DNA of 64,000 nt from a virus (IMGVR_UViG_3300022752_000014); one strand, 5' to 3'; counted from the stretch's first letter, positions 52,583-55,392 are shown. Translations and numbers: made by a program. Notes: a model not told the origin generated them from the letters alone.

Positions 52583-53017
52583 ATGGAAAAACTATTTAAA
52601 CTCTTGAGTGATGCTCAGTCATCACTTTTTGTTTTGTTTCATAAAACTTGGGCATTTCATTGGAATGTAGTTGGTTCTGATTTTACTCAACTACATCAAC
52701 TCTTTGGTGGACAGTATGAAACTATGTTTGAAGAGATTGATCGTCTCTCAGAGCATATGCGTTATTTGAATGTAAAACCTCTCAGTTCTCTCTCTAGAAT
52801 GCTTGAGGTTACACAGATTAAGGAGGCAGCAAGTTCCACAGGAGCAAAAGAAATGCTCCAAGAACTTCTTGAAAATAACGAAAAGTTTTGTGAATTAATG
52901 CAAGGGATTTCAGAAGAAGCAGAAGAGCAAAAGCAATATGCGACTGCTAATCTAGTTCAAGATTTAATGGAATCTCACGGCAAATTTGTTTGGCAGTTAA
53001 GATCTCATTTACAATGA
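52583..53017 (+). CDS. dps: Dps / mini-ferritin
   Basis: HWNVVG..LHQLF..QYE..IDRLSEH ferroxidase motifs; HGKFVWQLRS; TAAATA at 52560. Confidence 0.9.
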   Translation: MEKLFKLLSDAQSSLFVLFHKTWAFHWNVVGSDFTQLHQLFGGQYETMFEEIDRLSEHMRYLNVKPLSSLSRMLEVTQIKEAASSTGAKEMLQELLENNEKFCELMQGISEEAEEQKQYATANLVQDLMESHGKFVWQLRSHLQ

Positions 53018-53284: not shown

Positions 53285-53295
53285 ACCTCCCCACT

Positions 53296-53380
53296 GGAAA
53301 GGTGGTCGAGTGGTTGAAGGCTCTAGTCTTGAAAACTAGCGATGTGAAAGCATCCGTGGGTTCGAATCCCACCCTTTCCG
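53296..53380 (+). tRNA. tRNA-Ser (TGA)
   Basis: GGAAAGG/CCTTTCC, loop ctTGAaa, long variable arm. Confidence 0.95.
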
Positions 53381-53494
53381 TTTCAATAAGTTACAAATTT
53401 AACAATTGCTTAATAAGTGTTACGTAACGAACACAAAAGATTGACTGTGAAAGTCTTGTGGATAGTATATAGTAGTATCACAAGTATTAAACCT

Positions 53495-53644
53495 ATGGAT
53501 CAACACACCTATGAAAACTGGGTGAAGATCAAGGAAACTTTTGAAGCTTCTGGCAACACCGACAACATGTTTTATTATAGATCTTGCGAAATTGTAAAAA
53601 CTAAAAAAGATCCTCTTGCAAAATTTCTTGGAGACGAGAAATGA
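53495..53644 (+). CDS. Conserved cyanophage hypothetical protein (49 aa, MDQHTYENWVKIK)
   Basis: First ORF of a coupled small-gene run. Confidence 0.65.
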   Translation: MDQHTYENWVKIKETFEASGNTDNMFYYRSCEIVKTKKDPLAKFLGDEK

Positions 53645-53844
53645 TGCACGAACAAGAAGAATTAGTTACACGTTCTGAAGTTCAGGAGATGATTGATGCT
53701 GCTATACGAAGGCACAATCGGAATGCTTCCATTATTAGTATGTGCGTTGGGTGGGTGGTTCTTGCTTTATTTGCTGAAGGACTGCTAAGACTGATTGGGG
53801 TTATTCCGCCAGTTCTACCATGGCTCAAGATTACTCTCCACTAA
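53641..53844 (+). CDS. Small membrane protein
   Basis: IDAAIRRHNR, then TM IISMCVGWVVLALFAEGLL. Confidence 0.7.
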   Translation: MMHEQEELVTRSEVQEMIDAAIRRHNRNASIISMCVGWVVLALFAEGLLRLIGVIPPVLPWLKITLH

Positions 53845-54131
53845 TATTTTTAGTTCCTTGGTTTGTACTTGTGGGTATTGCACTTTCAATGATTGTGCAA
53901 GGTTGGATGATTATGAATGCTCAACACGGGTATTCTAAGAGTCCAAAAGTAAAACATCCAGAGTTAAACGACGTTAAAGCAGGAGACCCGTTACTAGTGG
54001 TTAGATTTACAGACGAAGACATCGAACAACTTCAAAGAAGAGTTTTACAACAGAAGATAGACGAATTATTCGAAGAACCCTCTAGTTACGAGGACGACGA
54101 TGATGACGATGGAATGGCAGGAGTTAATTGA
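53820..54131 (+). CDS. DUF2973-like membrane protein
   Basis: N-terminal TM, then KHPEL..GDPLLVVRF. Confidence 0.65.
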   Translation: MAQDYSPLIFLVPWFVLVGIALSMIVQGWMIMNAQHGYSKSPKVKHPELNDVKAGDPLLVVRFTDEDIEQLQRRVLQQKIDELFEEPSSYEDDDDDDGMAGVN

Positions 54132-54222
54132 ATTCCTTACAAAACAAATCTTGATTTTTATCGTGTTTATGTGTGGACTTATTGTTGGTTATGTTTATGG
54201 ACTACGAGAAGGAGGACAATGA
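54109..54222 (+). CDS. 37 aa single-TM peptide (MEWQELIEFLTKQILIFIVFMCGLIVGYVYGLREGGQ)
   Basis: Read by hand; its 3' end supplies the GGAGG RBS for the next ORF. Confidence 0.6.
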   Translation: MEWQELIEFLTKQILIFIVFMCGLIVGYVYGLREGGQ

Positions 54223-54311
54223 ACAAAAATTTACTGTTCAATGCATTAACTGTAATTGGTGCAATTGGATGCTTTGTTATATGGGGTTTAAATAACGCTT
54301 ATCCACAATGA
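54219..54311 (+). CDS. ndhQ: NdhQ-like NDH-1L small subunit (30 aa)
   Basis: GGAGG RBS, ATGA couplings; ALTVIGAIGCFVIWGLNNAY aligns without gaps to recalled cyanobacterial NdhQ C-terminus AVLILGFIAGLIWWALHTAY. Confidence 0.6.
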   Translation: MNKNLLFNALTVIGAIGCFVIWGLNNAYPQ

Positions 54312-54808
54312 AAAAACTCAACGATACAATTCTAACAGTCACGATTGCAATCATTGACTTTCTGTATCGTGACTTACCCATTCAAAGATTCTGGGTTCTA
54401 GAGACTATTGCCAGAGCACCTTACTTTGCCTTTTTAAGTGTGTTGCATCTGAGAGAGTCTCTTGGATTGCGAACAGATTCACACTACTATTTGATGAAAG
54501 AACACTTTGCACAAACCGTCAATGAAACAGAACACCTTATCGAAATGGAATCGCGTGGTGGGAGTAACCGTTGGATTGACCGCTTTTTCGCTTATCATTT
54601 GGTTATCATCTATTATTGGATTCTGGTGGTTTATTATTCTATTGCTCCCATCTCTGCTTATCATCTAAACACGGGTATTGAGTATCACGCCACAGAAACT
54701 TATCTCTCATACCTCTGGGAGCATCCAGAAGACACAAAGATCGCTGAGATTGCGGTTGATGAAATGAATCACTATATTGAACTTACAAGAGCAATGGAGA
54801 TGATTTGA
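54308..54808 (+). CDS. ptox: Plastoquinol terminal oxidase
   Basis: RFWVLETIARAPYF, NETEH, EYHATETY, DEMNH diiron motifs. Confidence 0.93.
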   Translation: MKKLNDTILTVTIAIIDFLYRDLPIQRFWVLETIARAPYFAFLSVLHLRESLGLRTDSHYYLMKEHFAQTVNETEHLIEMESRGGSNRWIDRFFAYHLVIIYYWILVVYYSIAPISAYHLNTGIEYHATETYLSYLWEHPEDTKIAEIAVDEMNHYIELTRAMEMI

Positions 54809-54930
54809 TGTTATTAGCAAAAGCACTTTTATTTGTTTCAATTCCTTTCGTTTTAGCAACACTCTATTTCGGAACAAAAGGAGGGTATTATGACTCCAAA
54901 GATTATAAGGGAAACGGAACCGCACATTAG
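54808..54930 (+). CDS. ndhP: NdhP NDH-1L small subunit (40 aa)
   Basis: TM followed by LYFGTKGGYYDSKDYKGNGTAH, matching recalled NdhP tail LFFGTRNGFYDTDQYHGNGSAH; TGATG coupling to ptox. Confidence 0.85.
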   Translation: MLLAKALLFVSIPFVLATLYFGTKGGYYDSKDYKGNGTAH

Positions 54931-55108
54931 GCAAAGATACCACTTTGCGACAACTGCATTTGTAAGAATGTGGGGGCACAGTTCACTACACGATCATAAG
55001 ATTGTAGACTTTTGTATTGAATGGGCACATAAAGAAGAGAATGCTCCACTTGACAACACAGTTGATCAATATTTTTATTATGAATTTAAGACTTGGAGGG
55101 GATATTGA
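54890..55108 (+). CDS. Hypothetical protein (72 aa)
   Basis: GGAGG RBS; overlaps ndhP. Confidence 0.6.
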   Translation: MTPKIIRETEPHIRQRYHFATTAFVRMWGHSSLHDHKIVDFCIEWAHKEENAPLDNTVDQYFYYEFKTWRGY

Positions 55109-55260
55109 TGGGACACTTTGCAAGATGGGTATTAGAAAATCCATATACTCTGGGTATTATTGGATATCTGTTAATTGTTGTACCTATTATGGGTATCTGG
55201 GCAATTCATAAGTATGGTTGGCAGCACTGGGCTCCATTTGACAAGGGGCACAAGGAGTAG
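55108..55260 (+). CDS. 50 aa single-TM peptide (..VPIMGIWAIHKYGWQHWAPF)
   Basis: Read by hand; GGAGG RBS, TGATG coupling. Confidence 0.65.
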   Translation: MGHFARWVLENPYTLGIIGYLLIVVPIMGIWAIHKYGWQHWAPFDKGHKE

Positions 55261-55266
55261 TATAAT
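55238..55266 (+). promoter_or_regulatory. Sigma70-type promoter for tRNA-Pro
   Basis: Perfect TTGACA-N17-TATAAT. Confidence 0.85.
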
Positions 55267-55300
55267 TAGTTCTGTTGAGAGGCAAGACCACTCAACGCAA

Positions 55301-55374
55301 CGGGGTGTAGCGCAGCTTGGTAGCGCATCTGCTTTGGGAGCAGAGGGTCGCAGGTTCGAATCCTGTCACCCCGA
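55301..55374 (+). tRNA. tRNA-Pro (TGG)
   Basis: CGGGGTG/CACCCCG, loop ttTGGga. Confidence 0.95.
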
Positions 55375-55392
55375 CTCATAAAACTTTACATT

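Follow-up and report, generated by a model that had tools for sequence, protein, structure and literature searches.

The window analysed here is a 64,000-nucleotide stretch of viral DNA, IMGVR_UViG_3300022752_000014, which carries on its plus strand, between positions 54,219 and 54,930, three overlapping genes: an open reading frame (ORF) of 30 amino acids, a gene for the plastoquinol terminal oxidase PTOX, and a second small ORF of 40 amino acids. The 30-residue ORF is joined to its neighbors by ATGA overlaps at both ends—with the stop codon of the preceding gene, which we call TM40, and with the ATG of ptox (54,308–54,311)—while the TGA of ptox and the ATG of the last gene have one base in common (TGATG, at 54,808). 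An earlier note, made from the sequence alone, had described the two small ORFs as coupled to either end of ptox, and both the peptides and the couplings are as it gave them. Its riskiest guess, that the 30-residue ORF encodes a shortened NdhQ, also held up: on profile comparison, we accept the peptide as an N-terminally trimmed homologue of NdhQ, which has kept the helix and the WGLxNAYP tail and has lost 8–17 N-terminal residues. NdhQ is a single-helix, oxygenic-photosynthesis-specific subunit of cyanobacterial NDH-1L, seen as chain Q of the structures 6KHI, 6L7O, 6NBY, and 6HUM, and is said to have been described by Nowaczyk et al. in 2011. Below, Q denotes the ndhQ-like gene and P denotes ndhP.

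The product of the middle gene matched the Pfam AOX family (PF01786) at 1e-13 (51.9 bits against a cut-off of 22.7) and phrog_4235 at 6.5e-79, with positions 1–166 of 167 covered, and it contains the di-iron ligand motifs LET (31), ETEH (73), EYHA (125), and EMNH (152), in agreement with its earlier assignment as PTOX. The 40-residue ORF, previously read as NdhP, is by its sequence a full-length NdhP: it matched the P chains of solved complexes (6khi_P, E 5.8e-8; 6hum_P, 5.4e-7) in an alignment that reaches the last residue, it matched phrog_2173 at 4.3e-21, and it found exactly one locus per genome in five picocyanobacterial genomes, at 57–69% identity and E values of 1e-9 to 1e-12. Besides this homology to Thermosynechococcus elongatus NdhP, the peptide has one helix and the tail FGT-x-x-G-x-YD-x-x-x-Y-x-GNG-x-AH that marks the subunit. 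The C-termini of NdhP and NdhQ given in the earlier note proved essentially correct when compared with PDB chains 6khi_P and 6l7o_Q. In hosts, NdhP is found solely in NDH-1L (PMC4131877).

That cyanophages can encode NdhP had been stated in the earlier note, and this is confirmed by the literature (PMC10452541, PMC12801897) and by our own tblastn search of GenBank, in which NdhP-like ORFs were found in 386 phage records, many of them between zwf and gnd, and mostly unannotated or called hypothetical. A passage in PMC10452541 credits cyanophage-encoded NdhP to Nowaczyk et al. 2011. A 2025 study (PMC12801897) termed ndhP uncommon in cyanophages, with annotated copies in P-TIM68 and S-SCSM2R; in view of the 386 records, that description does not hold.

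For the 30-residue peptide, searches of Pfam, NCBIfam, and PHROGs returned no match, and a word-indexed protein search returned one near-identical protein. Querying by tblastn gave weak matches in cyanophages only, mostly at unannotated sites, and the loci concerned encode the same type of peptide; with a second query, at least 73 GenBank records were found to carry a Q-like gene, all from Synechococcus phages or cyanophages and nearly all unannotated. We then scanned IMG/VR with two back-translated patterns, obtaining at least 132 matches, and counted as convincing members those with a hydrophobic helix, followed by WG[LIVM]xNAYP and a stop within 0–4 codons; at least 121 conserved Q-like copies were of this kind. 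When 1.8 billion representative proteins were searched exhaustively with a profile, only 32 small peptides came up, nearly all about 29 amino acids long and of the Q type, and wherever peptides of this type are named in their sources, the name is “hypothetical protein.” Across an alignment of 14 phage members (A1), W22, G23, N26, A27, Y28, and P29 are invariant. The window's peptide reaches a Kyte-Doolittle mean of 2.04 over the 19 residues from position 6 to 24, consistent with a single transmembrane helix. Judged by its conservation and by a strong Shine-Dalgarno sequence ahead of its start, the 30-residue ORF is a real, conserved gene. At the RNA level, parts of the cluster are represented, at 90–99% likeness, in contigs of two metatranscriptome studies, and one of these contigs joins the 3' end of a relative's Q-like gene to ptox. 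They are only a hint that the Q cluster is transcribed, since DNA can be present in libraries of this sort and the contigs derive from relatives.

Homology to NdhQ was established by comparing profiles. Against the whole PDB, the sole matches to the phage family profile were NdhQ chains, 6khi_Q (E 0.35) and 6l7o_Q (0.94), with the C-termini in register. Against 401 cyanobacterial genomes translated in six frames, the same profile found a match at E <= 1 in 271; most of the host matches listed covered profile positions 4–27 within an open frame of 45–75 amino acids, and the best (E 9e-9 to 1e-5) lay in small picocyanobacterial genomes. In five picocyanobacterial genomes, the profile picked out the ndhQ locus at E 1e-7 to 1e-9. 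The lack of any significant NdhQ match would have refuted the original guess, and that outcome did not arise. The host peptides extracted in this way were of two types. The beta-cyanobacterial type (A3) consists of MSDLNRGIMKF-GADSP, a helix, and a W-x-L-x-x-AYA ending, and it matches T. elongatus NdhQ (6khi_Q) at 2.4e-26. The picocyanobacterial type (A2) is about 39 amino acids long and ends in FIVWGLTNAYP; its top PDB matches are three NdhQ chains, the best at 2.4e-4, and one member, from Prochlorococcus MIT 9303, bears the name NdhQ in UniRef. Aligned with hhalign, the phage profile gave a probability of 98.5% (score 59.7) with the picocyanobacterial type and 96.7% (score 41.8, E 4e-10) with the beta-cyanobacterial type, and the two host types gave 97.5% with each other. 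Even as a single sequence, the window's peptide reached 97.6% with the picocyanobacterial alignment, and by BLASTP, it was identical at 13 of 27 positions to the Prochlorococcus peptide listed as NdhQ in UniRef.

As controls, we compared the phage profile with reversed host profiles, which scored 9.6–13.3, and with 100 column shuffles, none of which exceeded 17.5, against 41.8–59.7 for the real comparisons. Profiles of three neighboring single-helix phage families (A4–A6) had no match with an E value under 0.2 in those five host genomes, nor did they match any photosynthetic chain in the PDB. Because the reversed and shuffled profiles and the neighboring helix families all fail, we accept the homology. 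The W-[GA]-L-x-x-A-Y motif that immediately follows the helix is present in the window's peptide (WGLNNAY) and in both host types. The N-terminal segment NRGIMKF-GADSP is absent from all phage copies, and picocyanobacterial NdhQ likewise has none; since the latter begins with a shorter, acidic stretch instead, the segment does not define the family across cyanobacteria.

Two other likenesses were considered and set aside: a CP43 helix ending in FNNTAYP, found when the single sequence was searched against the PDB (E ~0.5), was treated as a chance match because it is lost once the family profile is used, NdhQ then being the sole hit, and a resemblance to the VVWGRNG end of PetN was dropped, PetN having been brought up by no search. 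A scan of genome contigs for PTOX gave one Nostocales locus, used only as a route to cyanobacterial genomes. Two picocyanobacterial host genomes, G323 (L035:1453-1584) and G327 (L042:1453-1584), carry an extra, divergent NdhQ-like gene of 44 amino acids ending in VIWGLFNAYPNML, which may be an NdhQ paralogue; a second, weaker match elsewhere in each genome is presumably the canonical ndhQ.

Co-folding with host NdhD had also been named as a check, and with ESMFold2, the 30-residue peptide docks on NdhD of Synechococcus WH8102 with a score of 0.62 in three of three runs, compared with 0.01 for the best of three controls; scores this high were seen for 51 of 78 solved complexes and for 2 of 108 mismatched pairs. 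At least 97% of contacts are shared between runs, with a predicted local distance difference test (pLDDT) of at least 82 for the partner, and the peptide residues in contact are 16, 19–20, 23–24, and 26–29, six of the nine lying in invariant or nearly invariant columns. On NdhD, the contacts fall at residues 291–304 and 423–431 (WH8102 numbering). The result is weakened by the possibility that the model remembers solved NDH-1L complexes containing NdhQ; the score shows likeness to a known pair, not binding. In the solved complex, NdhD lies between NdhP and NdhQ, which flank it on its two sides and are each in contact with both NdhD and NdhF, and NDH-1L disassembles upon loss of either small subunit (Pan et al. 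2020, PMC6992706). A passage in the same paper cites Zhao et al. 2015 for the requirement of host NdhQ for NDH-1L stability.

The surroundings of Q in relatives show a conserved small-gene cluster, comprising orf75, orf67, a DUF2973-like gene, TM40, Q, phrog_593, and phrog_1184. Among the matches listed from IMG/VR, the scope of every count out of 121 given here, the order orf75–orf67–DUF2973-like is kept 5' of Q in most loci and TM40 is kept upstream in 26 of 121. Within 600 nucleotides of Q, we found phrog_1184, the commonest downstream neighbor, in 61 of 121 loci, phrog_593 in 56, ndhP in 30, and ptox in 8. What lies between Q and P varies: nothing apart from a gap of 4–5 nucleotides in five loci, a 55-residue ORF in two, ptox in the window and in loci L087 and L166, gnd in L067, L148, and L165, and longer stretches including gnd or zwf in several others, with petE, gnd, and zwf also nearby in relatives. 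The ATGA-coupled junction of Q and ptox recurs in three lineages, whose ptox is 65–89% identical to that of the window, and the one-base overlap of ptox and ndhP recurs in L087 and L158. The micro-operon of ndhQ, ptox, and ndhP envisaged in the earlier note is thus real in its coupling, which recurs, but it is not a fixed unit, as the slot between Q and P is variable and few Q loci have ptox close by.

In the window, the three genes belong to an unbroken run of nine small plus-strand genes (53,417–55,260) that, on reading the sequence, overlap at every junction and are flanked by two tRNA genes (Table 1).

Table 1. Genes and other features in and around the overlapping small-gene string, with positions counted from the first letter of the window
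Feature	Position	Strand	Remark
ferritin/Dps-like gene	52583-53017		side observation
tRNA-Ser	53295-53381		flanks the string
orf75	53417-53644	+	first gene of the overlapping string
orf67	53641-53844	+	single-helix ORF
DUF2973-like gene, 103 aa (amino acids)	53820-54131	+	Pfam score below cut-off
TM40, 40-aa single-helix ORF	54100-54222	+	ATGA overlap with start of ndhQ-like gene; phage-specific
Shine-Dalgarno AAGGAGG	54209-54215	+	three bases 5' of ndhQ-like ATG; read from the sequence
ndhQ-like gene (Q), 30 aa	54219-54311	+	one helix and C-terminal WGLNNAYPQ tail
ptox, plastoquinol terminal oxidase, 166 aa	54308-54808	+	
ndhP (P), putative NDH-1L subunit P, 40 aa	54808-54930	+	single helix
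phrog_593 gene, 72 aa	54890-55108	+	PHROG match
phrog_1184 gene, 50 aa	55108-55260	+	single helix; PHROG match
sigma-70 consensus promoter	55238-55266		TTGACA, 17 nt (nucleotides), TATAAT; 12/12 matches
tRNA-Pro	55301-55375		flanks the string

Several features of this string are worth recording in their own right. The phrog_593 gene starts 41 nucleotides inside ndhP in another reading frame (overlap 54,890–54,930), and its Shine-Dalgarno sequence, GGAGG, is made by codons of the conserved NdhP motif GGYYD; the same overlap recurs in relatives, for example, L004 and L009. The 103-residue protein scores 21.0 bits against Pfam DUF2973, a family of unknown function, just under the cut-off of 22.2, and in some relatives the corresponding region is split into two ORFs, a 59-residue helix part and a 38-residue acidic part. 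For TM40, phrog_1184, and orf67, searches gave no meaningful PDB or host homologue; TM40 weakly matched designed proton channels (E 0.019), seemingly through helix composition. A perfect sigma-70 consensus promoter sits at the end of the string, 35 nucleotides 5' of tRNA-Pro, and nine tRNA genes (Arg, Leu, Gly, Asn, Val, Ser, Pro, Ile-UAU, and Met) lie around the cluster between 51,919 and 55,840.

The wider window also encodes nrdA, nrdB, and sugar-nucleotide enzymes, and the relatives that share its small genes are all cyanomyoviruses of the Kyanoviridae. At least half of the sampled words from 53,400–55,300 were matched in 12 runs from 11 studies of lake, freshwater, and sediment metagenomes. 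Together with the Kyanoviridae relatives, these matches identify the window as part of a freshwater T4-like cyanophage; they also point to a freshwater host, and the named GenBank relatives are all Synechococcus phages or cyanophages. A megablast search of the region against GenBank phages gave no match, and the phage is therefore without a close sequenced relative among them.

We propose that this freshwater cyanophage has captured, from picocyanobacteria, the genes for both single-helix subunits specific to NDH-1L, and that their products sustain the complex while PTOX drains plastoquinol, a reading to which we assign a probability of roughly 0.6. Homologies, conservation, gene linkage, and docking at the level of a model form its foundation. 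After infection, phage-made NdhQ and NdhP would insert into the thylakoid membrane and bind NdhD1 on its two opposite faces, close to NdhF1. The NdhD1/NdhF1 module is what distinguishes the form of NDH-1 used in cyclic flow and respiration; if this distal module stayed attached, NDH-1L could remain assembled while host protein synthesis fades, and could go on pumping protons as it transfers electrons from ferredoxin to plastoquinone, in cyclic flow as well as in NADPH respiration. PTOX would drain excess plastoquinol to oxygen. In relatives, gnd or zwf, both NADPH makers, fill the same slot between Q and P. Translation of the small genes, incorporation of their products into NDH-1L, and a physiological effect are steps that we infer; so is the earlier suggestion that the phage would bias host NDH-1 toward NDH-1L, as opposed to the NDH-1MS forms, and favor ATP production over carbon fixation.

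A number of observations weigh against this proposal. The direct match of the phage profile to solved NdhQ is suggestive and, at E 0.35, not significant alone, and the link to NdhQ passes through picocyanobacterial peptides that are themselves NdhQ by sequence (2.4e-4) and by a database name, not by biochemistry. Lacking the N-terminus of NdhQ, the phage peptide may behave differently from the host subunit. The docking presumes that the modelled site on NdhD is the site of chain Q and that the Swiss-Prot entry NU4C_PARMW is an NdhD1-type paralogue. Most Q genes do not stand beside ptox. The pair is not obligate either, with NdhP in 386 phage records against at least 73 for Q, and with NdhP undetected, when the window's copy served as query, in the Q-bearing phages ACG-2014i and S-RIM12 and in one 96%-complete IMG/VR genome. 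Finally, the Q product is one predicted from the DNA sequence.

Some of these observations could be accommodated if the trimmed peptide were an antagonist, taking the NdhQ site on NdhD1 in order to alter or loosen NDH-1L—for example, by freeing NDH-1M or changing which distal module is bound. Every phage copy is missing the N-terminal segment of host NdhQ, Q occurs in phages in which no NdhP was detected, and the modelled position of the conserved tail on NdhD suits a mimic or a competitor alike. However, picocyanobacterial NdhQ itself has a short N-terminus of low conservation, such that the loss of this part may not matter, and in many phages Q is accompanied by an NdhP that is full length and host-like, both being placed next to genes that supply or drain one and the same electron path, which suggests support of the complex. 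We therefore regard antagonism as improbable. Also improbable, in our view, is that an NdhQ-derived peptide now serves another membrane partner, such as PTOX or one of the phage single-helix proteins, perhaps as an anchor or assembly aid. The ATGA-coupled Q–ptox pairs of three lineages would fit such a role, as would the position of Q within a conserved string of phage-only small membrane proteins, with phrog_1184 close by in half of the loci listed; yet ptox is a near neighbor in only 8 of these, and the residues that are invariant in phages are those conserved in host NdhQ, the very residues that make the modelled contacts with NdhD. Least credible, and in our judgment very unlikely, is that the likeness to NdhQ reflects convergence or chance among short hydrophobic helices, or that the ORF is untranslated: the peptide's 30 residues, its E value of 0.35 against solved NdhQ, and the blank Pfam and NCBIfam results would allow it, but control profiles score 9.6–17.5 where the real ones score 41.8–59.7, other single-helix phage families have no host match, WGLxNAYP is identical in phage and picocyanobacterial NdhQ, and at least 121 copies are conserved at the amino-acid level, that of the window behind a strong Shine-Dalgarno sequence.

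If the phage does sustain NDH-1L with its own subunits, as we favor, a further and more tentative idea, with the odds against it, is that the NdhQ–NdhP pair forms the frame of a swappable cassette, whose slot takes either an electron source (zwf or gnd) or a sink (ptox), and that the virus thereby specifies a route that starts at NADPH and runs by way of ferredoxin, NDH-1L, and plastoquinone to PTOX. Were this true, the route would pump protons and, once the host is shut off, yield ATP with no need of carbon fixation and in part without the photosystems. Much of aquatic photosynthesis is shaped during infection by auxiliary metabolic genes of cyanophages, and to these can be added a second tiny NDH-1L subunit, the candidate NdhQ, present in far more than a hundred contigs from phages and in dozens of isolates that have been sequenced. 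With a product of about 29 amino acids, phage ndhQ is so short that it hardly ever receives an annotation; an auxiliary metabolic gene that is conserved is overlooked by gene callers with length cut-offs. The specific target of the viruses appears to be the attachment of the NdhD1/NdhF1 module, and the recurrent bracketing of ptox, gnd, or zwf by Q and P links NDH-1L to the phage genes for the pentose phosphate pathway and plastoquinol oxidase. As a small, easily cloned pair of peptides, Q and P lend themselves to testing how phages maintain their ATP supply.

A literature search combining NdhQ with phage and viral terms found no paper discussing phage-encoded NdhQ, the one hit naming NdhQ solely in the title of a reference it cites, an earlier mention in the founding NdhP/NdhQ paper being possible; to our knowledge, NdhP is the only tiny NDH-1L subunit previously known from phages. 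Compared with host NdhQ, the phage peptide has the same plan, one transmembrane helix with a W-[GA]-L-x-x-A-Y tail after it, with profile homology of 96.7–98.5%, and over 27 residues it shares 48% identity with the Prochlorococcus peptide named NdhQ. It differs in its length, 30 amino acids against 38–46 in hosts, and in having neither the NRGIMKF-GADSP segment of beta-cyanobacterial NdhQ nor the acidic, serine-rich start of picocyanobacterial NdhQ. It is also encoded by a virus and its placement in NDH-1L is predicted, whereas host NdhQ is a solved chain of that complex. Cyanophage NdhP, to which the window's 40-residue gene belongs, is a precedent for phages carrying a tiny NDH-1L-specific subunit; the window's ndhP differs from the known cases in being coupled to the stop codon of ptox and paired with a gene for a second such subunit. 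Auxiliary metabolic genes for electron transport in cyanophages include those for PTOX as well as petE, petF, ndhI, ndhD, zwf, and gnd, and both PTOX and NdhP in cyanophages are already known. The window's ptox is a standard phage PTOX (phrog_4235), located in the usual hypervariable region of small genes near tRNAs, and it is set apart from other phage PTOX genes by having its start and stop codons overlapped by two genes for NDH-1L subunits, an arrangement of few lineages. What the window contributes is this bracketing of ptox by Q and P, together with evidence that it recurs.

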